Notes under the pieces: generated by a model
Told to the model about the DNA's origin: nothing
What the model saw: only the letters and a program-made list of their open reading frames with translations
Databases searched by the model: none
Made by a program: the position numbers and the translations under genes
Assembly (NCBI GenBank): GCA_030614255.1
Contig: JAUWKI010000004.1
Span: 4 to 64,003 of the forward strand
Origin: Actinomycetes bacterium
GTDB taxonomy: Bacteria > Actinomycetota > Aquicultoria > UBA3085 > Oleimmundimicrobiaceae
Length of the DNA stretch: 64,000 nucleotides
Reading direction: 5' to 3'
Part shown: piece by piece, positions 15,632 to 61,852 of the stretch
How the letters are laid out: each line of letters starts with the position of its first letter
Numbering within the stretch: the stretch's first letter is position 1

Positions 15632-16153
15632 CTATACAATTTCTATTGCACCAACTTCACAAACGGTTAAACATTGCCCGCACTTGGTGCATTTTTTATC
15701 TCTAACGTAATAGGGGTTATTGTCTGAAAGATAGGGAACCAGCTTCTCTCCCACAATTGCATCCTCGGGACAGACTTTTTTGCAAGCATCACACATCACA
15801 CATTTCTCCGGATCTATCCAGTAATTAATGAGAAGTTCACAGGAGTTATGAGAACAGTGACCATCTTTTATGTGCTCTTCATATTCATCTCTAGAAGAAG
15901 TCAAAGAGTCCTGTAAAAAATTTGCCGCGTCCTTGCCAAGCTTACATCGAGCGGTATCAATGATGTTGGAAGATGTTTTTTCTAGAACAACCATATCTCT
16001 CTCTTCACCCTCACTTTTTGTGATTCGTTCCAAGACATCGATTATCCGAGTTGTGCCAAGCATGCAAGGCAAACATTTGCCACACATCTTATCCTTGGCA
16101 AATCCCTTGAAAAATTCGAGCGTTATTAGAACGGAACAACCCTCGCTACTCAT
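15632..16153 (-). CDS. Small Fe-S protein: NuoF C-terminal-type [4Fe-4S] motif plus 2x[4Fe-4S] ferredoxin
   Basis: CGKCLPCMLGT (NADH_4Fe-4S-like) followed by CVMCDACKKVCP and CTKCGQCLTVCE. ATGA overlap with the nuoF-like gene. Confidence 0.55.
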   Translation of the reverse strand: MSSEGCSVLITLEFFKGFAKDKMCGKCLPCMLGTTRIIDVLERITKSEGEERDMVVLEKTSSNIIDTARCKLGKDAANFLQDSLTSSRDEYEEHIKDGHCSHNSCELLINYWIDPEKCVMCDACKKVCPEDAIVGEKLVPYLSDNNPYYVRDKKCTKCGQCLTVCEVGAIEIV

Positions 16154-18066
16154 GTGGCCACCCCCTGCTTGCCGGTAGGCAGGTTGGATGCAGTAGATGC
16201 GGTCTTTCGTTCAAATTCCCTGACGACACAACCGGTCGGGCACACACCAATACAAGCCCCGCATTTTTCGCAATATGACTCATCAATGTAGAATCTACTG
16301 CGCTCTTCCACAACTGCCTCATAAGAACACACTTCCTTACAAAGACCACAGAGAAGACATTCCTCCTCGATTATCCTATATCGACCGAGCGCGACGCACG
16401 CTCCGGCCGGACAATACTTATCCCTGATATGCGCCTCGTACTCATCTCTAAAATATCTGATGGTAGAGAGCACAGGGTTGGGCGCACTTTTGCCCAAACC
16501 ACAAAGGGCTGTTTCTTGAATATGTCTGCTAATACTTTCCAGGCGTTCAATATCTCCCTCTTCGCCCTTCCCCTCAACAATTCTCTCCAAAATCTTGAGC
16601 ATCTCATACGTCCCAATTCTGCAAGGCGGACACTTCCCGCAGGACTCCACCTGAGTGAAAGAGAGAAAATATCTGGAAATTTCTACCATGCAATCGGACT
16701 CATCCATCACGACAAGCCCTCCGGAACCCATCATGGCTCCAACCTCATTTAATGAATCAAAGTCAACGGGCAAATCCAGATATTCTTTTGGAATACAACC
16801 GCCACTAGGCCCTCCTATCTGAACAGCTTTAAACTCTTTGTCTCCTAAAATCCCACCGCCTATATCGTAGACAATTTCTCGAATGGTGATCCCCATCGGG
16901 ACTTCGATTAGCCCCGTGTTTTTAACCTTCCCGGTAAGAGCAAATATTTTTGTTCCCGGGGAGCTCTTCGTGCCAATGGAGGTATACCATTTAGCCCCCT
17001 TGACCAATATCGGAGGAATATTCGCAAGGGTCTCGACGTTATTTAAGACCGTCGGCTTACCCCAGAGACCCTTCTCCACCGAACGAGGAGGTGTCGTTCG
17101 AGGCATGCCCCTCTTGCCTTCAACAGAAAACATCAGCGCGGTGGATTCTCCACATATAAAAGCACCCGCTCCACGTTTTATTTCCAAATCGAAATCAAAA
17201 CCACTTCCGAGTATGTTCTCACCCAAAAGACCAAGTTCCCTTGCTTGGTTAATAGCTATCGTTAGATTCTTAACCGCCAAGGGATATTCTTGTCTTACAT
17301 ATATAAACCCCTCTTTGCAATTGCCCAGAGCATAGGCTCCTATTATCATGCCTTCGATGACAGAATGAGGGTCACCTTCCAAAACGCTTCTATCCATGAA
17401 AGCACCAGGGTCACCTTCGTCGCCGTTGCAAACGATGTACTTCACGTCGCTCTCTGTTTTTCGGCCTCCCTCCCACTTTCTTCCCGTCGGGAAACCCGCT
17501 CCACCTCGACCCCTCAGGTTGGATTTCTTAATCTTTTCTATAACTTCATCGGGAGCCATATCATTTAGCACCTTTGCCAGCGCTCCATAACCACCAACCG
17601 TGATATAATCATCCATACTGGTGGGATCAATATGGCCACAATTTCTTAAAACTATGCGCTGTTGTTTGCCGTAAAATAGAATTTCTTCCTCCTTAACAGC
17701 AAGTTCTCCGGTGATGGGGTCAACCACCTGTAGTCGGTCGATAACCTTGCCACGATTTACGGTGAGATCAATTATTTTTGCTGTATCGAACGGATCGACC
17801 TTTTGATAAAAGACATCCAACGGCTCTACGATTACAATGGGACCCTTCTCGCACAAACCCTGACAGCCCGTAGGCCTTATCTCAAAATCAATGCCTTGTT
17901 TTATAGCTTCCGCTTTAAAAGCTTCCACAACCTCTTGCGCACCGGAAGCGCGACACCCAGTCCCACTACAGACTCGAATTATTTTCTTTTTTTGTTTAGC
18001 CCGTTCACTACATATCTTCTCTCTTAAGACACCTAGCTCTTTAGTCTTTTTGAGTCTACTCATCAT
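16150..18066 (-). CDS. NuoF-like NAD(P)H-binding flavoprotein (HydB/HndC/FdhB type) with N-terminal thioredoxin-like 2Fe-2S domain and C-terminal ferredoxin domains
   Basis: GRGGAGFPTGRKWE FMN/NADH motif. ESCGKCPPCRIG [4Fe-4S]. Two C-terminal CxxCxxCxxxCP motifs. Confidence 0.85.
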   Translation of the reverse strand: MMSRLKKTKELGVLREKICSERAKQKKKIIRVCSGTGCRASGAQEVVEAFKAEAIKQGIDFEIRPTGCQGLCEKGPIVIVEPLDVFYQKVDPFDTAKIIDLTVNRGKVIDRLQVVDPITGELAVKEEEILFYGKQQRIVLRNCGHIDPTSMDDYITVGGYGALAKVLNDMAPDEVIEKIKKSNLRGRGGAGFPTGRKWEGGRKTESDVKYIVCNGDEGDPGAFMDRSVLEGDPHSVIEGMIIGAYALGNCKEGFIYVRQEYPLAVKNLTIAINQARELGLLGENILGSGFDFDLEIKRGAGAFICGESTALMFSVEGKRGMPRTTPPRSVEKGLWGKPTVLNNVETLANIPPILVKGAKWYTSIGTKSSPGTKIFALTGKVKNTGLIEVPMGITIREIVYDIGGGILGDKEFKAVQIGGPSGGCIPKEYLDLPVDFDSLNEVGAMMGSGGLVVMDESDCMVEISRYFLSFTQVESCGKCPPCRIGTYEMLKILERIVEGKGEEGDIERLESISRHIQETALCGLGKSAPNPVLSTIRYFRDEYEAHIRDKYCPAGACVALGRYRIIEEECLLCGLCKEVCSYEAVVEERSRFYIDESYCEKCGACIGVCPTGCVVREFERKTASTASNLPTGKQGVAT

Positions 18067-29799: not shown

Positions 29800-30118
29800 T
29801 CTAGCCATCAGCCAAATAGCTTGACCTTACGACCTCGATAGCCGATAGCTCAAACCATTTACCATCAGTCCAAAACTAGCTAATTATTCAAAGTTGGTTG
29901 GATAGTTTTTTCCATATGCCATAAGCTACCAGGAAAATTAAAAACTTTTTATTGATTTTGGTTTTCAAAACCCAAGTGGGTTGCTCATGAGGCGACTGTG
30001 CGGCCGACCGTTAAACCTGCCCGCCAATGCCTAACGGCATAATAGGCGTAGGCAGGCGGGTGAATGAGACTTGAATACCTGCGGCACCGTGCCTACCAGC
30101 AGGCAGACCGGTAGGCAG
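29800..30118. repeat. Interspersed repeat cluster: CAGCCATCAGCC module, hairpin module B (CCTGCCCGCCAATGCCTAACGGCATAATAGGCGTAGGCAGGCGGG), module C (CACCGTGCCTACCAGCAGGCAGACCGGTAGGCAG)
   Basis: Module B at 30016-30060 and module C at 30085-30118. Both recur elsewhere in the window. Confidence 0.65.
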
Positions 30119-30151
30119 ATTAGTTAAGCTGGCAATTTAAAACACTAATTC

Positions 30152-38099: not shown

Positions 38100-38290
38100 A
38101 AAATCACTCCTTTGACCATTAACAATTTACATAAATCAGACTTCAGACACTAGGCTTCAGTTGCTTTGAAATTAATGGTCTTATTCTTAATCTCTACTTA
38201 ATTACTACCTAATCACAACTTAATCTCCTGTACATTTCCAACTTGCTTCTTAATCCTTACCGCTTAATCCTTTACCCTTTACCCTCTACT

Positions 38291-38449
38291 AATCAGTCGG
38301 TAGTCTCTTGGTGGGAAGTCGGTAGTTTGTCGGCCAGATTGCTGGTCTTATTACAACACTCCATACCCTGTTTGCCATCTGCCATAAGCCATCCGCCCCG
38401 CCACCTGCCCGCCAATGCCTAACGGCATCATAGGCGTAGGTAGGCGGGG
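38291..38449. repeat. Composite repeat element D-A-B (AGTCGGTAG module, GCCATCTGCCATAAGCC module, CCTGCCCGCC...GGCGGG hairpin module)
   Basis: Near-identical to the inverted copy at 60876-61018. Confidence 0.7.
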
Positions 38450-48546: not shown

Positions 48547-50907
48547 ATGATAAAAGTGGGCTCCATCATGTGGGGAAGCCACGTTTCCACACTCGTTCAA
48601 GCAAGCAAGGAGCTCGATTTCGTACAGCTTGAGCTCCGTTCCATGCGCGACTTAGAGGATGAGCTGGTACAAGAGAAGTTTCTGGAGTATCTGCGACAAG
48701 AGGCGGATGTCCTTCTTCTCTATCCGTCCGCAAACGAAGTCTGGAGCGAGATGCTCCCCGAAATTGAAAAAATTAGAAAGGCCGTACCCACCGTCTCCTT
48801 CGGTCACGACCCCTCTTTCTGGAGTCTCTCTACCGTAGATCCCGAGACGGTGGCCACGGCCTATAAATATCTGGTAACCGACGGCTTGGAAAACATGAAA
48901 AGCCTGCTATCCTATATTGCCCGCGAGGTTCTCGATATCGAGATGGAGGTCGAGCCGCTTAAGGAAACGCCATGGCAGGGAATATATCATCCCAACGCCT
49001 CATCGCACTTTGACAACCCTGAAGATTACCTCAAATGGCACAAAAAATTCGACCCCTCCTGCCCCACCGCGGGTATCCTCTTTTATCGCTCTTACTGGAT
49101 AAACGGAAACCTCGAAGTAGAAAACGCTCTTATCCGCGCATTTGAGGATAGGAAAATTAACGTTGTGCCGGTCTTCTCCCACGGCTTTAAAGAAAATGAG
49201 CTGGGGGCCAAAGGAAATGACGTGGCGATCCCCGCTCTACTAACAAGGGATGGCGAGCCAATCGTCGACATCCTGCTCAATTTGCAATCTTTCTTTCTGG
49301 TAACCCTGCCGGAAGGCTCCGATGTCGGCTGCGCTGAGGCGGGTGTAGAACTACTTAAAAAACTGGATGTCCCGGTCATCGACCCCTTGGTTTCCTACCG
49401 CAAAACCGAAGAGGAGTGGAGAGCCGATGTTCAAGGTCTTGCCGAAAACATAGTCTGGTCGGTGGCCATGCCGGAATTTGATGGAATAATTGAGCCGCTG
49501 GTAATCGGGGTTCAAACAAGAGCAAGCGACGAGGAAACCGGGGTTACCCTCGAACGATACATGCCCATCCCGGAGCGGGTCAATCACATCGTTGAGCGGG
49601 CCAAGAAATGGATTCGCCTCCGAAGGAAACCGCCTCAAGAACGAAAGGTCGTCTTCGTTCTGCACAATAATCCATGCGCTGGTGTGGAGGCCACTGTGGG
49701 CAGCGGAGCAAACTTAGATACCTTGGAAAGCGTAGCTAAAACCATGCAAAAGATGAAGGAGCAAGGATACAAGGTCGAAAAAAACCCGTCTGAGGGGAAG
49801 AAGTTAATCGAGACCATCATGGAAAGAAAAGCCATCTCCGAATTCAGATGGACCCCTGTGGAAGAGATTGTAGCAAAAGGCGGGGCACACACCCTCCTTC
49901 CCTTGGAAAAATATCTGGTGTGGTGGAACAAGTTGCCGGAAAATGTGAGAGAGAAGATGGTCTCCACCTGGGGGGAACCGCCCGGCGAAGGGATGGTCCA
50001 CGAAGGAAAAATTGTGCTCACGGGGGTAGAATATGGAAATGTCATGGTTTGTGTCCAACCCAAACGGGGATGCTATGGGGCACGCTGCGACGGACAGGTC
50101 TGCAAGATACTCCACGATCCCGACTGTCCCCCCACTCACCAATACCTGGCCACTTACAGATATCTGGAGGATATCTGGGGAGCCGATGCCGTAGTGCACG
50201 TGGGAACCCACGGCAATTTGGAGTTTTTGCCCGGAAAGGCAGTGGGGCTTTCCGATTCTTGCTATCCCGACATAGGAATCGGCACCCTCCCCCATCTCTA
50301 CATATACAACGCCGACAATCCACCGGAGGGGACCATCGCCAAGCGAAGAAGTTACGCCACGCTGATCGACCACATGCAGACGGTGATGACCGAAAGCGGT
50401 CTCTATGAAAGTTTAAAGGAGTTGGAGGGATATCTGGCCGAATATAACCAGGCTAAAATCTCCAATCCGGCCCATGCTCACGCCCTGGAGCATCTCATCG
50501 TGGACAAAATAAAGGAGTCCAAATTAGAGAAAGAGATAGGGATCGAGGAAAAAGATATTCATGGAGAAGAATCCCTCGACAAAACCGTCAAACGGGCCCA
50601 CGAAGTTTTAACTCGCCTGAGAGAGACCCAAATTCAAGACGGCATGCACATCTTCGGGGAGCTCCCTCAAAGCGACGCCCGAGTAGAGTTCATAAACTCC
50701 ATTCTTCGTTACGACTCGGATGAAGAATTCTCTTTCCGGAAGACAATCTTTGAGCTCATGGACTTAAACTACAATTACGCCTTGAACAACCCCGCCGAAT
50801 ATTACGATGACTTCGGTAAAACCTATGGGGAGCTGCTCGAAGAGGCCCAAGGATACTCAAAGGAGTTCATTAGGGAGTTTCTCGCACACGAAGAGGAGGT
50901 AAATTAA
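48547..50907 (+). CDS. cobN: CobN-like chelatase, N-terminal portion (786 aa)
   Basis: CobN/Mg-chelatase H family motifs (HVGTHGNLEFLPGK, YIYNADNPPEG). Ends at an in-frame TAA. Confidence 0.8.
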   Translation: MIKVGSIMWGSHVSTLVQASKELDFVQLELRSMRDLEDELVQEKFLEYLRQEADVLLLYPSANEVWSEMLPEIEKIRKAVPTVSFGHDPSFWSLSTVDPETVATAYKYLVTDGLENMKSLLSYIAREVLDIEMEVEPLKETPWQGIYHPNASSHFDNPEDYLKWHKKFDPSCPTAGILFYRSYWINGNLEVENALIRAFEDRKINVVPVFSHGFKENELGAKGNDVAIPALLTRDGEPIVDILLNLQSFFLVTLPEGSDVGCAEAGVELLKKLDVPVIDPLVSYRKTEEEWRADVQGLAENIVWSVAMPEFDGIIEPLVIGVQTRASDEETGVTLERYMPIPERVNHIVERAKKWIRLRRKPPQERKVVFVLHNNPCAGVEATVGSGANLDTLESVAKTMQKMKEQGYKVEKNPSEGKKLIETIMERKAISEFRWTPVEEIVAKGGAHTLLPLEKYLVWWNKLPENVREKMVSTWGEPPGEGMVHEGKIVLTGVEYGNVMVCVQPKRGCYGARCDGQVCKILHDPDCPPTHQYLATYRYLEDIWGADAVVHVGTHGNLEFLPGKAVGLSDSCYPDIGIGTLPHLYIYNADNPPEGTIAKRRSYATLIDHMQTVMTESGLYESLKELEGYLAEYNQAKISNPAHAHALEHLIVDKIKESKLEKEIGIEEKDIHGEESLDKTVKRAHEVLTRLRETQIQDGMHIFGELPQSDARVEFINSILRYDSDEEFSFRKTIFELMDLNYNYALNNPAEYYDDFGKTYGELLEEAQGYSKEFIREFLAHEEEVN

Positions 50908-52458
50908 GTGGAAATAAAATTGGATCAGCGGTTAAAGGAGTTTGAAAACCTCGCCACAAACATCATGGGCGACAGATTCATAAATCCCGAAGCACTCGAA
51001 AAACTCTCGGTTCTAAAGTCGAAAGTTTTGGACATCTCCGCCAGGATTGAGGCCTCAAAGGAAATCGAAAGCCTGCTTCACGGACTCTCCGGCGGCTACA
51101 TCGAAAGCGGGCCCTCGGGACTTATCACCCGAGGGAGGGCAGACATCCTTCCCACCGGAAGAAATTTTTACTCTCTCGACCCTTATAAGGTTCCCACCAA
51201 GGCCGCTTGGAGGGTGGGAAGAAGCCTTGCAAACGGTTTAATTGAAAAATATGTGGCAGACACGGAAGAGATGCCCGAGAACTGCGGCATGGTGCTCTTC
51301 TGCACCGATATTATGTGGTCAGATGGCGAGGAAGTATCGCAGATTCTCTATCTTTTGGGCGTGGAGCCGAAATGGTTGAGCAACGGCCGGGTGAAGGGTT
51401 TTCGGATAATCCCTTTGGAAGAGCTCGGCCGGCCCAGAATAGACGTGACCATCCGTATCGGGGGCATAACACGAGATTGCTTCCCCAATATCATGGAGTA
51501 TCTGGACGAGGCAATAACGGCGGTTGCCTCCCTGGATGAACCCTTGGAGCTCAACTTCGTCCGCAAACACGCCCTCGAGCAACTCGACGGCTCTTTGGAC
51601 CCGCAAGCGTGGAGAGAGGCCACTTCCCGCATCTTCGGCAGTCGCCCGGGAACCTACGGCTCCGGCGTAAATCTTGCCGTCTACGCCAGCGCGTGGAAAG
51701 AGGAAGAGGACCTGGCAGATGTCTTTACTTATTGGAGCGGCTACGCCTACGGCAAGGAGATGTTTGGTAAAGAATCCCATGAAACCTTCTTCAAACAGCT
51801 CAAGTCGGTTGATTTGACTTATAATAAGACGGTAACCGACGAATATGATTTATTCGGCTGTTGCTGCTATTTCTCCTATCAAGGAGGACTGACGGCAGCG
51901 GCTAAAAATGCCTCGGGGAAAGAGGTAAAAACCTACTATGGCGACACAAGAAACCCGGCCAAGATCGAAGTAAGGGATTTGGCCGATGAAATTAGGCGCG
52001 TAGTGCGGACAAAGCTTCTCAACCCAAAATGGATCGAGGGAATGAAGCGTCACGGCTACAAAGGAGCCGGTGATATCTCCAAAAGAATAGGTAGGGTCTA
52101 CGGATGGGAAGCGACCACCGAACAGGTCGACGATTGGATATTCGACGAAATCGCCGAAACATTCGTATTAAATGAAGAGAACCGAAAGTTCTTCGAGGAA
52201 AATAACCCCTGGGCCCTGGAAGAAGTGGGTCGAAGGCTTTTGGAGGCCGAACAAAGGGACCTATGGGATGCCAATCCAGAGGTCTTGCAACAATTAAAAC
52301 AAGCTTATCTCGAAATAGAGGGTTGGATGGAAGAAAAAACCGGTGACGTCCAAGGCGAATTTCAAGGAGGAGCGGTGGATGTAATTACGATGGATGAGGT
52401 CGAAGACTGGGGAGAAAAGATGAAGAAGTTAAAGAAAAAATTGCATGGTGGAGGATAA
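50908..52458 (+). CDS. cobN: CobN-like chelatase, C-terminal portion (516 aa), same frame as the upstream ORF
   Basis: CobN C-terminal motifs (ADILPTGRNFYSLDP). GTG start 8 nt after a GGAGG RBS, directly after the TAA. Confidence 0.8.
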   Translation: MEIKLDQRLKEFENLATNIMGDRFINPEALEKLSVLKSKVLDISARIEASKEIESLLHGLSGGYIESGPSGLITRGRADILPTGRNFYSLDPYKVPTKAAWRVGRSLANGLIEKYVADTEEMPENCGMVLFCTDIMWSDGEEVSQILYLLGVEPKWLSNGRVKGFRIIPLEELGRPRIDVTIRIGGITRDCFPNIMEYLDEAITAVASLDEPLELNFVRKHALEQLDGSLDPQAWREATSRIFGSRPGTYGSGVNLAVYASAWKEEEDLADVFTYWSGYAYGKEMFGKESHETFFKQLKSVDLTYNKTVTDEYDLFGCCCYFSYQGGLTAAAKNASGKEVKTYYGDTRNPAKIEVRDLADEIRRVVRTKLLNPKWIEGMKRHGYKGAGDISKRIGRVYGWEATTEQVDDWIFDEIAETFVLNEENRKFFEENNPWALEEVGRRLLEAEQRDLWDANPEVLQQLKQAYLEIEGWMEEKTGDVQGEFQGGAVDVITMDEVEDWGEKMKKLKKKLHGGG

Positions 52459-54229: not shown

Positions 54230-56245
54230 ATGAGTTGTTTAGCTGGTAAAGTATATTCCTTCACCGCAATTGTGGGACAGGACAAGATGAAAAAGGCCCT
54301 GATTTTAAATGTCATCAACCCCAAGCTCGGCGGGGTACTCATCAAGGGCCAAAAAGGAACTGCCAAATCAACCGCCGTTCGCGCTCTTGCCGACCTTTTG
54401 CCCGAAATAGAAGTGGTCGAGGGCTGCCCCTTTGGCTGTAATCCTCACACTGAAGCAGAAATGTGTCCCCACTGTCTTGAAAAAAAGCTAATTGAAGACA
54501 AACTGCCCCTCTCCCACCGGAAAATGAAGGTGGTTACCCTCCCCATCAATGCCACGGAGGATAGAGTAGTAGGAACGTTGGACATAGAGCGCGCGATAAA
54601 ACATGGCGAAAAACGTTTTGAGCCGGGGATTCTGGCGGATTCCCACCGCGGCTTCCTTTATGTTGACGAGGTGAACTTGCTCGATGACCACATAGTTGAC
54701 ATTCTGCTGGACTCCGCCGCGATGGGAGTCAACACCGTCGAGAGAGAGGGGATCTCCTTCTCACACCCCGCCCACTTTATACTGGTGGGAACGATGAACC
54801 CCGAAGAAGGAGATTTAAGGCCACAACTTTTGGACAGGTTCGCACTCTGTGTCGAAGTCGAGGGCATAAGCGATACAAAAGAAAGGGTGGAGATAATTAA
54901 GAGGCGAATGAGCTATGAAAACGACCCTCATTCCTTCGGCCATCGCTGGGAAGACACTCAAGAAAATTTGCGCCGTCAAGTCCTGGCCGCCGAAGCACTC
55001 CTGCCTAAGACAGAGATATCCGACGATATGCTGCACTTAATAGCCGAAATCTGCGTGGGGATGGACGTGCACGGACACAGAGCCGACATCGTGATGATGA
55101 AGACGGCTAAAACTATCGCCGCCTTTCATCAAAGAAGGGAAGTAACCGAGAAAGATGTGAAAGAAGCTGCTGAGCTCGCCCTGCCTCACAGGATGAAGAG
55201 AAAGCCGTTCGAGGAGCAAAAACTGGACCAAGAAAAGTTGGAGCAAACCATCGAAAAACATAAGAAAAATCGGAGCGAACCCGAGCAAGCCGAGCAAGAA
55301 CAGAAAGAACCTCAAGAATCATCACACCGTGCCTACCGACAGGCAGGAAATCAGGATGACCAAAAGGAGGCTCCGGATAATTCGTCTTCAAAAACCTTTG
55401 ATGTCGGAACCCCCTTTAAAACAAGGGATATCAAGATGCCAAAAGACAAGCTTCCTCGCACGGGTGGCGGAAGGAGGGCAAAGAGCGTTACGGGCTCGAA
55501 GTCCGGCAAATATGTTCGGAGCACCATCCCCAAAGACAAGACAACGGACATCGCCCTCGACGCAACCATAAGAGCCGCCGCCATCAGACCGTGCCTACCG
55601 GCAGGCAGGAACGGAAAAAATGAGACCGGAAAGACTGGTTTAAAAATTGAAAAACCCGATTTACGCCAGAAGGTAAGAGAAAAGAAGGTCGGCGCATCCA
55701 TCCTCTTTGTGGTCGACGCCAGCGGCTCCATGGGCGCGAAAGAGAGGATGGTGGTGGCCAAAGGAGCTGTGCTTTCGCTCCTAATCGACGCCTATCAAAG
55801 ACGGGATAAGGTCGGGCTCATAGCTTTCAGGAGAAAGAGCGCGGAGCTCTTGCTTCCATTAACAGACAGCGCTGAAACCGCCCAAAGTTATCTCAGAGAG
55901 CTTCCAACGGGAGGAAAAACCCCTTTGTCCCATGGGCTAACCCTCACGCTTGAGACATTCAATAAAGAAAGGGCCAAAAACAAAAAGGTCCTTCCTCTTA
56001 TGGTTTTAATAACCGACGGGAAAGCCAACGTTTCTTTGAGCGAGAAAAATGCAGTTGAAGAAGCCGGGGAAATCGCGGAAAAATTTGCCGAAGCAAAAAT
56101 AAAAAGCTTGATTATCGACACAGAAAACGACTTCTTGAACCTGGGGCTCGCCAAAGAAATAGCGAACGCCTGTGATGGCGAATATATAAAGCTGGAGGAG
56201 CTTGAAGCGGAGAAATTGGCTCATATGGTTAAGGAAATAAACTAG
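54230..56245 (+). CDS. ChlI/ChlD-like chelatase subunit (AAA+ ATPase fused to vWA/MIDAS domain)
   Basis: N-terminal AAA+ (GQKGTAKST). Acidic/Pro-rich linker. C-terminal vWA with DASGSM MIDAS. Confidence 0.8.
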
Positions 56246-56273
56246 CTAAAAATCAACGAGTGGGCAATGGGGG

Positions 56274-57143
56274 TCAGGTCTTGTTTTTTGACATTTCTTC
56301 TTCTTTTGTGATTCTGCTTATCGTCGAATAGTGCATCTTGAGATGATTGGCAATTTCTTTCTGGCTGTAGCCATATTGCTCTGTTGCCTCCACTATCTTC
56401 TTATTTCTCATCTGTTTATTCTCCAATATTCTTTTCTTAAACAAACTTTCAAGACTTGGTCTGCCAACATATCTTTGGTGCTTAGGAATATCCTTTATTT
56501 TTTCCTGTCCTTTTAAATAACTTTTAAATTCCTCAACAAAATCATTATCGCCAAGCAGGATTTGTCCTTTTGCCTTTATCCAAATTGATTCTTCTTCTAT
56601 TCCTGCCTTAACAAACTCTCTGTATCTTTTCCTTGCCGGTTTTATCTTTGGGCCAAATTGAGCTAAAACCCAGTTTGTTGTGAGGCAGGGATGAGGTTTT
56701 TCCAAGCCGGCAGTAGCACGATAACTGCCATATCTCCATTCTTCGGGGTCTTTAACCAGCTTTGCTCTTATGGGGTTTAAGACCACGTATCTGCAGACCT
56801 CAAGAAGATGGCTTTCTTTCTGGATGAGTATGGCTTTGTATCTTCCTTGAAAGATGTGACCCACCCTGTGATGCTTTTTATTGAAGGTCTGTGTGTATAC
56901 CCCGTTTAGTTGTCTCATGCCCTTGGAGAGATTTCCATCGGGAGTTTCGATAATTAGATGGTAGTGGTTATTCATCAGACAATAAGCGTGGCAGATAAAA
57001 TTGTATTTCTTGTTTACACTTTTGAGAACGTTTAGAAAGATTTCTTGGTCTTTTTCATCATAAAATATGGGCTTCTTTTCATTGCCTCTTGATGTTATGT
57101 GATATATAGCTCCGCTGTATTCTATCCTTAAAGGTCTTGCCAT
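56274..57143 (-). mobile_element. RAYT/IS200-like Y1 transposase (HuH) with C-terminal HTH domain, flanked by imperfect inverted repeats
   Basis: NHYHLII HuH motif and RYVVLNP Tyr region. Inverted repeats GGGGTCAGGTCTT...GACAT at 56270-56294 and 57173-57197. Confidence 0.7.
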
Positions 57144-57228
57144 GAAATACTTGTAACATATCTAATGATTTAATGTCAAGATTAAAGACCTGACCCCTTT
57201 TGCTTTTGTGCTTTTGCAAACTCTGATA

Positions 57229-60875: not shown

Positions 60876-61153
60876 CCTGCCCGCCTCTGGCGGGGCTGAT
60901 AGCGTATGGCAGATAGCAGATGGTGAATGGAATACAGAGTATAGAATGTGGAATATAGTAAAATCAGTAATTTGGCCGGCAAACTACCGACTTCCCACTA
61001 AGAGACTACCGACTGATTGGTAATGGGTATAGTTAAATGAAAAATGGAGAATGAAAAAATAAAAATGTCTTTAAGGATTTTTGTAAGACCAGCAATCTAG
61101 AAAACTTTTTCATTTTTCTATGTAGTTCTACCTGCCCACTGATAGGCACGGTG
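60876..61153. repeat. Composite repeat element B-A-D in inverted orientation, plus module C (inverted) at 61131-61153
   Basis: Reverse complement of 60974-61018 is CCAATCAGTCGGTAGTCTCTTAGTGGGAAGTCGGTAGTTTGCCGGCC, matching 38291-38336. Confidence 0.7.
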
Positions 61154-61205
61154 TTTTTAGTTTTTATTTTATGCCGGCAACTGGAAGCTGGTGGCTGAGA
61201 GATAG

Positions 61206-61475
61206 ATGACCGTGCACCCGCCTTCGACATTAAACTACAAGCGAAATCCCGACAGTTAACTCCAGTCAGGTGAACCTGCGGCACCCGGTAGTTCTTGCTT
61301 ACCGCTGCTTCCTTCCGGACCTGACGGGGTTCACAAGCTGCCGTCGCACAGGACCCAACCTTCAATGCCACTTATCAAAATTCCGTTCTCATAGCCAATG
61401 CCTCCGGAGGGAATTCAGTCCCGCTATAGCGGATTGCGGGTACAGGGCACCGCTAACTCCCCACTTAGCACGGTC
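61206..61475 (-). ncRNA. ffs: Signal recognition particle RNA, long (Bacillus/archaeal type with Alu domain)
   Basis: Minus-strand sequence contains CAGGTCCGGAAGGAAGCAGC (domain IV). The 5' region GGTGCCCTGTACCCGCAATCCGC aligns with the B. subtilis scRNA Alu domain. Ends GACCGTGC/GCACGGTC pair. Confidence 0.75.
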
Positions 61476-61508: not shown

Positions 61509-61602
<94 letters not shown>

Positions 61603-61758
61603 CGACCCCTCCCAAAAACAGCTAATAGTTTATAGTTTCCAGTCATAAATTTCGAGTATCCACAGGATTAGAAGTGAATGGTAAAAACTGCTTTTATTTC
61701 TTGCTTTTCACTCTTTGCTCTCATCTACCGACTGTCGACTCCTCACTACCAACTAAAT

Positions 61759-61852
61759 TGGCGGAGAGGGAGGGATTCGAACCCTCGTCCCGCCGTAAGG
61801 CAGGAAACGGTTTTCGAGACCGCCGCACTCGGCCAGACTATGCGACCTCTCC
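61759..61852 (-). tRNA. tRNA-Ser (anticodon CGA), CCA encoded, long variable arm
   Basis: 94 nt. Acceptor GGAGAGG/CCTCTCC. Anticodon loop CTCGAAA. T-loop GGTTCGAATCC. Confidence 0.85.

Follow-up and report, generated by a model that had tools for sequence, protein, structure and literature searches.

The window analysed here, a stretch of 64,000 nt from an organism placed close to Candidatus Oleimmundimicrobium (Actinomycetota, Candidatus Aquicultoria), carries a putative cobaltochelatase gene with CobN genes upstream of it. The ORF at 54230-56245 encodes a product of 671 aa of the fused ChlI/ChlD type. The whole protein scores 843 bits against the NCBIfam model TIGR02442 (cut-off 779), and Pfam recognizes AAA_lid_2, Mg_chelatase and VWA domains. 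Two copies of a short repeat lie inside the gene, and an element with a Y1 (HUH) transposase adjoins it:

54230..56245, + strand: host gene, putative cobaltochelatase, with ChlI-type AAA+ module, linker and ChlD-type vWA domain (TIGR02442, Pfam)
55320..55349, + strand: first arm of a 30-nt direct repeat (repeat family D4), comprising copy 1 and its flanks CATCA.A and AA
55327..55347, + strand: copy 1 of the 21-nt element (CCGTGCCTACCGACAGGCAGG), opposite which contigs L110, L111, L112 and L113 align with a gap of exactly 21 nt
55582..55611, + strand: second arm of the 30-nt direct repeat, comprising copy 2 and its flanks (repeat comparison and DNA alignment)
55589..55609, + strand: copy 2 of the 21-nt element (CCGTGCCTACCGGCAGGCAGG), shared by the window with L110 and L111, missing from L112 and L113
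56264..57203, - strand: TIRYT-type Y1 (HUH) transposase element with 32-nt terminal inverted repeats (Pfam Y1_Tnp and HTH; NCBIfam NF047646)
56274-57143, - strand: the TIRYT Y1 gene itself
56264-56295 and 57172-57203: terminal inverted repeats of the TIRYT element, containing GGGGTCAG

The two copies and the unit they share

A sequence-only reading of the window had located a 22-nt motif at 55326-55347 (ACCGTGCCTACCGACAGGCAGG) and 55588-55609 (ACCGTGCCTACCGGCAGGCAGG), both on the + strand, and a direct search found it at exactly these positions. With up to three mismatches the motif matches the window four times, against 0 matches expected from dinucleotide-preserving shuffles. The length, in contrast, had to be corrected, as the inserted unit spans 21 nt (55327-55347 and 55589-55609) and the leading A belongs to the target. 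The consensus of the inserted unit is CCGTGCCTACCG[G/A]CAGGCAGG, and a single loop base, G13A, separates copy 1 from copy 2. The starts of the two motifs lie 262 nt apart, which equals 1 modulo 3, and the copies are therefore read in different frames. Copy 1 turns Q366 into HRAYRQAG (a net gain of seven residues), while copy 2 adds PCLPAGR (residues 454-460) between the R and the N of a degenerate AAPxQ motif. These readings agree with the earlier statement that the copies are related at the nucleotide and not at the protein level. Protein-level duplication as the origin of the copies was ruled out by their difference in frame and by the 241 nt between them, which are not repeated.

The copies share 30 nt, beyond the unit itself, because their target sites resemble each other (CATCA[C/G]A^AA, where the caret marks the insertion point), and the resulting direct-repeat arms are identical at 28 of 30 nt. 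Elsewhere in the window CATCA.AAA occurs only twice, with both strands counted; the resemblance of the two target sites within the cobaltochelatase gene exceeds chance. Such near-identical sites would fit a local target preference, but also homology-guided copying with copy 2 as the source.

Both copies had been assigned to the linker between the AAA+ and vWA domains. This applies to copy 1, which lies in an acidic hypervariable linker, whereas copy 2 directly follows the conserved DATxRAAA helix and sits inside an otherwise conserved AAPxQ motif, which reads AAP[HFYN]^Q in homologues and AAIR^N in this genus. In an AlphaFold2 model of the host protein computed with 34 sequences as input, residues 350-486, which contain both inserts (366-373 and 454-460), have a pLDDT below 50, and both insertions thus lie where the protein tolerates extra residues.

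The 21-nt unit is made up of an imperfect palindrome of 20 nt and one additional C at its 5' end. Folded as single-stranded DNA, it forms a 5-bp stem (TGCCT/AGGCA) around a 6-nt loop (ACCGGC) with an energy of -3.8 kcal/mol, which is not better than that of shuffled sequence (z = -0.8); a stable hairpin as the defining feature of the element was ruled out on these grounds. The unit begins CCGTG or CCCTG and has no CCA tail, and GTAG occurs within it on the reverse strand only (CCGGTAGGCA), in stem and loop, and in A9 variants only. Its length equals exactly 7 codons, and five of the six frames contain no stop (PCLPAGR, RAYRQAG and VPTGRQ forward, LPAGRH and CLPVGT in reverse, with TAG in the remaining reverse frame), which is how the element survives inside genes. 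Rfam matches no known RNA family to the motif region, the window yielding only the SRP RNA and two tRNAs.

Three further, degenerate copies bring the total to five short imperfect palindromes of this kind in 64 kb, against 0 expected by shuffles:

16150-18066, - strand: NuoF-like ORF hosting a degenerate copy
16164..16184, - strand: degenerate intragenic copy with 3 mismatches (ACCTGCCTACCGGCAAGCAGG), read as NLPTGKQG in the C-terminal tail of the NuoF-like ORF
30087..30107, + strand: degenerate intergenic copy with 2 mismatches, within a mosaic repeat cluster
61131..61151, - strand: degenerate intergenic copy with 4 mismatches, which follows the SRP RNA gene at a distance of about 57 nt

The intergenic copies that the sequence-only reading had cited are thus degenerate ones. 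An exact-match look-up found no strain variants of the NuoF-like protein.

Filled and empty sites in relatives

The DNA encoding the closest homologues was retrieved and aligned with the window. Two ENA contigs, L110 and L111, are identical to the window at 1994 of 1995 nt across the gene, and the 21 nt of copy 1, neither more nor less, are absent from both. At the empty site they read CATCACA|AAATCAGG (in short form CATCACA|AAATC), with no target duplication. Contigs L112 and L113, which belong to a sister species within Candidatus Oleimmundimicrobium at 88% identity, are without both copies, and the empty site of copy 2 in these contigs reads CATCAGA|AATGG, again with no target duplication. 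Over the 12 kb shared with L112, no indel other than the two 21-nt insertions exceeds 9 nt; besides these there are a tandem duplication of 9 nt within the same linker and, elsewhere, an indel of 6 nt. At the protein level, the columns of PCLPAGR are filled in only one of 120 homologues, the 99%-identical P0001, and empty in the other 119. The two-copy allele is present on four public contigs, one of which, from an independent Logan assembly, is identical to the window over 8067 nt. The source data for the filled allele include SRR14865926 and ERZ4220937, and those for the empty allele ERZ23499000 and ERZ26661670.

Since a gap of exactly 21 nt separates each filled site from its empty counterpart, the alignments show both copies to be precise insertions of one 21-nt unit without target duplication. 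Judging from the aligned contigs, copy 1 is a very recent insertion that is polymorphic within the population, and copy 2 is, on the same comparison, an older insertion, but one specific to this species. This corroborates the earlier proposal of a repeat element inserted in-frame into a tolerant linker, given the exact gaps in relatives and the position of both inserts in the segment of low pLDDT. That proposal had suggested aligning orthologues for lineage-specific insertions, checking strains for length polymorphism, and looking for distant orthologues with the same peptides at conserved positions as evidence to the contrary. The first comparison found copy 2 without counterpart in nearly all homologues and both copies missing from the sister species, the second found the strains without copy 1, and no such distant orthologue appeared among the 120 homologues.

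Presence and absence give no direction by themselves, and palindromes are prone to deletion, so that the segments might instead be ancestral in the linker and have been precisely deleted in relatives. We regard this as very improbable. Copy 2 is missing in the outgroup (L112 and L113) and in 119 of 120 homologues, the outgroup also lacks copy 1, each missing segment is exactly the 21-nt unit that is seen at unrelated sites in other phyla, and there are no flanking direct repeats to promote so precise a loss.

It has also to be considered that the copies are selected functional sites, either as a protein-binding site or regulatory RNA hairpin, or as a deletion switch in which recombination between the 30-nt repeats removes 262 nt. 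The latter has some appeal, since 262 is not a multiple of 3 and recombination across the 28/30 direct repeat would cause a frameshift and truncate the protein just past the AAA+ module, leaving a ChlI-like AAA+ protein only; the deleted allele, however, was not seen among 8 contigs. Against a functional site stand the absence of copy 1 from otherwise identical strains, the occurrence of the 21-nt unit in unrelated genes, frames and orientations, the weakness of the hairpin and the lack of an Rfam family at the region. Taken as a whole, a selected role of either kind seems to us very unlikely. Overall, we consider it probable, with some reserve, that the locus records precise and recent insertions of a mini-palindrome, CCGTGCCTACCGGCAGGCAGG, which would spread at the DNA level without target duplication.

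Distribution of the family across bacteria

We scanned a collection with one genome per prokaryotic species for the pattern CCGTGCCTACCNNCAGGCAG. The scan returned at least 109 loci with at least 86 exact 21-mers, whereas chance predicts about 0.3 exact copies for 596 Gb. Among the 113 pattern matches listed, 86 have GG at the free middle positions and are thus the exact 21-mer, where an even spread over the 16 dinucleotides was expected. The exact copies among the matches listed come from more than ten phyla and have mutually unrelated flanks. Hosts listed are Patescibacteria (many classes), Chloroflexota, Bacteroidota/Ignavibacteria, Planctomycetota, Acidobacteriota, Nitrospirota, Actinomycetota, Proteobacteria, Margulisiibacteriota, WOR-3 and others; tiny CPR genomes and phages also carry the element. 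Besides long-read MFD assemblies, some of which were submitted as whole-chromosome records, the sources include the isolate Flavipsychrobacter stenotrophus RB1R16 and a genome from a single cell.

Since metagenome assemblies supply most of the contigs, an assembly or sequencing artefact might be suspected, or failing that a chance match. We find this hardly credible. An assembly artefact at the cobaltochelatase gene is excluded because the independent Logan assembly is identical over its 8067 nt, shuffles of the window give no matches by chance, the element recurs in the long-read, single-cell and isolate genomes named above, and in conserved genes it always occupies a whole number of codons.

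The last point is seen most clearly where conserved proteins can be compared. In one UvrA from Parcubacteria, the element corresponds to an exact 7-residue gap against solved UvrA structures (VKYGN-LPAGRHG-KNIA vs VRY-------KGKNIA), and an actinobacterial IscS with the element shows a 7-residue gap against E. coli IscS. Other hosts found by inspection are PheT, IleRS, a ribonucleotide reductase, GpmI and HsdR, as well as a phage replication protein. In Ignavibacteria the element lies in the C-terminal sorting domains of T9SS substrates, where the same locus holds paralogues with and without the insert.

Of the 86 exact copies listed, 55 (64%) fall in ORFs with a minimum length of 150 aa, where random placement at the same loci would put 69.5 +/- 4.1; the depletion from coding sequence is only mild. 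The copies occur in both orientations and use every open frame. Frame use among the intragenic copies listed is skewed (AVPTGRQ 22, LPAGRHG 15, CLPVGT 8, RAYRQAG 7, PCLPAGR 3) and runs away from the Cys-containing readings, a pattern that selection on the encoded peptide would produce.

The wider family, whose consensus is CCNTGCCTRCCGGCAGGCAGG, extends over many bacterial phyla and some phages. A metagenome scan with the degenerate pattern CCNTGCCTNCCGGNAGGCAGG, in which positions 3, 9 and 14 were varied, gave 136 matches listed, with 69 of the form C3G9 (the perfect palindrome), 42 of the form C3A9 and none of the window form G3A9, which is thus a minor family member. Because G3A9 is such a minor variant, at 0 of the 136 matches listed, the cross-phylum recurrence of the exact form may come from repeated mutation within a cloud of variants and not from transfer between genomes. 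IMG/VR contributed 28 loci of the family and 3 copies of the exact 21-mer, while cultured plasmids and isolated phages gave weak partial matches only. Family members are arranged as single copies, inverted dimers, tandem arrays with a 21-nt period (loci L019 and L140) and copies nested at the apex of another.

Routes of movement and comparison with known elements

The Y1 gene that adjoins the cobaltochelatase gene passes the NCBI model for a 'REP-associated tyrosine transposase'. Its terminal repeat GGGGTCAG fits the subclass 2.1 TIRYT consensus GGGG[AT][CG]A[CG], a C-terminal HTH is also present, and TIRYT of subclass 2.1 have been reported not to be REP-associated (PMC6006769). As a mobiliser this transposase was rejected, since its ends are unrelated to the 21-mer and Y1 genes are not enriched near copies elsewhere (one weak match in 747 kb); the TIRYT gene is probably unrelated to the 21-nt element. 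An all-against-all ORF comparison over the loci listed (n = 109) found no common neighbour gene, only generic families. A longer autonomous element bounded by half-palindromes was likewise rejected, as isolated half-sites pair only as nested or dimeric copies of about 40 nt or at chance distances. With copies lacking an associated transposase and the element present in tiny CPR genomes, a dedicated neighbouring enzyme is unlikely. A sequence-specific process, on the other hand, is likely because one asymmetric 21-nt sequence is conserved across phyla.

The flanks hold further clues. Among the exact copies listed, position -1 is G in 57 of 82 (70%) and position +1 is C in 44 of 82 (54%), the latter rising to 43 of 49 (88%) for C3A9 copies listed. 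In 7 of the 82 listed, against 1.7 expected, the sequences on either side can pair into a stem of 6 bp or more that encloses the element, and the right flank starts with CAG in about 10 of the 82 (by our reading of the flanks), against about 1.3 expected. Across genomes the preference thus covers one flanking base only, whereas both sites within the cobaltochelatase gene read CATCA.A^.

We propose, with low confidence, that new copies might be made at the DNA level without target duplication, by one of two routes. A sequence-specific enzyme supplied in trans could work on DNA in single-stranded or hairpin form, much as HUH 'peel and paste' enzymes do, or the unit could be copied during replication, primed by short flank homology. 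Copy 1 would most likely have used a site that resembled the site of copy 2 (CATCA.A^AA). We lean weakly towards a single-strand, hairpin-directed, duplication-free route, with template switching during replication as its main rival.

The rival would need no transposase. Copy 2, 262 nt away, would have served as the template for copy 1, in a template switch or in gene conversion over a short tract, during replication and primed by CATCA.A on the left and AA on the right, the family would spread within genomes by replication accidents, and tandem arrays would arise by slippage. It can draw on the shared and otherwise rare CATCA[C/G]A^AA sites, on the proximity and common orientation of the copies, on the lack of a target duplication, and on the 109 loci listed without an associated transposase together with the presence of the element in tiny CPR genomes and phages. 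Several Ignavibacteria T9SS tail paralogues, in addition, share the insert site (..A^G..), and their right flank CAGG matches the element's own end; the excess of CAG noted above also counts in favour. However, copy 1 carries G13A although the strains differ by just 0.05-0.3%, the flanks are mostly unrelated in other genomes, and passive copying does not account for the retention, across phyla, of a single sequence with a fixed 21-nt unit and an asymmetric extra C. We therefore judge this account the less probable of the two, though a serious contender. Against our main explanation it counts that homology-guided local copying fits the likeness of the target sites at least as well as transposition does, that G13A is not directly predicted by the enzyme route or by the copying route, that the hairpin of the single unit is weak, and that the search around the listed copies turned up no mobilising enzyme.

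A broader reading may be advanced, tentatively and at somewhat less than even likelihood. In this reading CCNTGCCTRCCGGCAGGCAGG, a palindrome family of 20/21 nt, would be an undescribed and still-active mobile element of most bacterial phyla, colonising essential genes (UvrA, IscS, tRNA synthetases and the chelatase, from CPR to Actinomycetota, and phages) and moved without target duplication, either by a non-adjacent, sequence-specific activity, possibly a conserved host function, or by transposase-free replication.

The filled/empty pair matters in its own right, as a difference of exactly 21 nt between strains with 99.95% identity over the gene represents an event caught in the act, which fixes the unit, its ends and the absence of a duplication. 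It touches on the open question of whether and how single REP-like hairpins still move. Seven-residue additions to conserved enzymes in many phyla constitute a widespread, unannotated source of protein length variation, and the element can mislead alignments and phylogenies built from metagenome-assembled genomes. The exact copy in cultured F. stenotrophus RB1R16 makes the mechanism open to experimental testing.

Among known elements, the GTAG and CGTC REPs come close, being palindromic repeats of 20-40 nt that occur as singles, inverted dimers and clusters and are in some cases read through in genes. Intragenic REPs, including those in uvrA and tRNA synthetase genes, have been documented (Di Nocera et al. 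2013, PMC3733652). According to the same study, CGTC REPs occur in several phyla with no dedicated transposase and include the short RPE-4 and RPE-6, and how REPs that lack their own transposase move was raised there as a question (PMC3733652). The 21-nt element nevertheless has no unpaired terminal GTAG, and the sole Y1 gene in the window is flanked by the 32-nt GGGGTCAG repeats and not by the 21-mer, so that the window contains no REPtron of the kind formed by GTAG REPs and RAYT. It also lacks the features of CGTC REPs, namely a terminal CGTC, a stem of 8-9 bp starting with AT, a loop of 4-5 nt and a CCA tail. While REPs are mostly extragenic, about two-thirds of the exact copies listed lie inside ORFs, and the unit is fixed at 21 nt.

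Rickettsia palindromic elements (RPE), the analogy drawn in the sequence-only reading, are likewise selfish palindromic repeats that sit in-frame in protein-coding genes and are translated. The analogy is apt for this behaviour, the insertion of a palindromic repeat that is read through in genes, but does not extend to family membership. The 21-nt element is found across phyla, here in a host of the Actinomycetota, and is set apart by host and size and not by sequence comparison. RPE-1 measures roughly 100-150 nt and is known from Rickettsia only.

MITEs such as Correia/NEMIS and Nezha share the non-autonomous, multi-copy habit and at times lie in-frame in genes. They differ in having terminal inverted repeats around an internal segment and in duplicating their target, whereas the half-palindromes of the 21-nt element abut and its insertion leaves no duplication. 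The 'peel and paste' elements of the IS200/IS605 family and PATEs resemble it in the lack of a target duplication, in an imperfect hairpin that distinguishes the strands and in a preference for flanking bases; such elements, however, depend on a pair of distinct subterminal hairpins and on a target of 4-5 nt, and the 21-nt element has no associated TnpA gene. The GC clusters and 'byp' elements of yeast mitochondria are palindromes too, likewise tiny and rich in GC, and they also enter coding sequences, by an as yet unexplained route. They are organellar and eukaryotic, and byp elements are skipped by the ribosome, whereas for the 21-nt element the open frames and the exact length of seven codons imply that it would be read through.

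A search of the text of open papers yielded no description of the 21-nt sequence or its peptides. Small palindromic repeats that insert in genes are already known, and the 21-nt element lacks the defining features of the named families compared here; what is new is a documented recent insertion together with a seven-codon unit spread through the genes of many phyla.

Copies of the element within coding sequences

The window holds a third intragenic copy of the 21-mer, in addition to the two in the gene of the putative cobaltochelatase (ChlI/ChlD fusion). It is degenerate and encodes NLPTGKQG within the final 11 residues of a NuoF-like protein.

16164-16184, minus strand: degenerate element copy in the NuoF-like gene

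Among the public loci fetched for comparison, the element recurs at a single site of Type IX secretion C-terminal sorting domains, reading YFYQLKA-[V/M]PTGRQ-AG... (L067, L074 and L225, from Ignavibacteria, and L008, L022 and L073). Sorting-domain paralogues free of the insert are present in the same locus as element-bearing ones, and paralogues within one genome hold differing variants of the element. The sequences flanking the element have diverged, yet the element itself is nucleotide-identical.

In viral and planctomycete contigs, the 21-nt unit is arrayed head-to-tail in 2 to about 10 copies.

L140, 3915-4124: head-to-tail array, with no listed ORF assigned to its position
L019, 2229-2311: head-to-tail array within an ORF
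L116, 4717-4758: head-to-tail array within an ORF

The latter two are translated as heptapeptide repeats, e.g., AVPTGRQ.

The chelatase gene and its surroundings

The acidic linker of the chelatase, which carries the first of the two element insertions, also contains a 9-nt tandem duplication that is missing in L112, the contig of an 88%-identical sister species; changes in length are concentrated in this linker. Upstream, the cobN coding sequence is divided between two directly adjoining ORFs whose junction, GAGGAGGTAAATTAA|GTG, places a start codon immediately after a stop codon, with a Shine-Dalgarno-like GAGGAGG close upstream.

48547-52458: split cobN (786 and 516 aa)
55281-55289: tandem duplication (CCGAGCAAG)
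56264-57203: gene for a 289-aa Y1 transposase of the TIRYT type (C-terminal HTH), with 32-nt terminal inverted repeats
61210-61473, minus strand: gene for a bacterial large SRP RNA (201.7 bits against Rfam RF01854)
61516-61852: two tRNA genes inside a 240-nt tandem repeat

The transposase element lies 18 nt downstream of the chelatase stop codon, and restriction-modification genes occupy the corresponding place in L112. The contigs L110 and L111, near-identical to the window across the chelatase gene, both end within this element, suggesting that it is multi-copy. L262, a public contig with an identical chelatase allele, has one extra 240-nt unit of the tRNA repeat, whose copy number is therefore variable.

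Intergenic mosaic clusters and recurrent hairpins

Several repeat types, including (GCCATCA)n heptamer arrays, make up the intergenic mosaic clusters of the window.

1-130, 2700-2763, 29803-30120, 38277-38448 and 60894-61154: mosaic clusters
38277-38353 and 60956-61032: 77-nt repeat with two CGGTAG motifs
30015-30060 and 38403-38448: strong 46-nt hairpin (folding z = -4.2)

The half-sites of the 21-mer are similar to the arms of the 46-nt hairpin. Further short GC-rich hairpin motifs are common to unrelated genomes (seen in L013, L127, L128 and L066), and their loops sometimes contain an inserted 21-mer. One such motif is CCCTCTCC...GGAGAGGG; another, GTCATTCCCGCGAAGGCGGGAATC, is of the CGTC-REP type.
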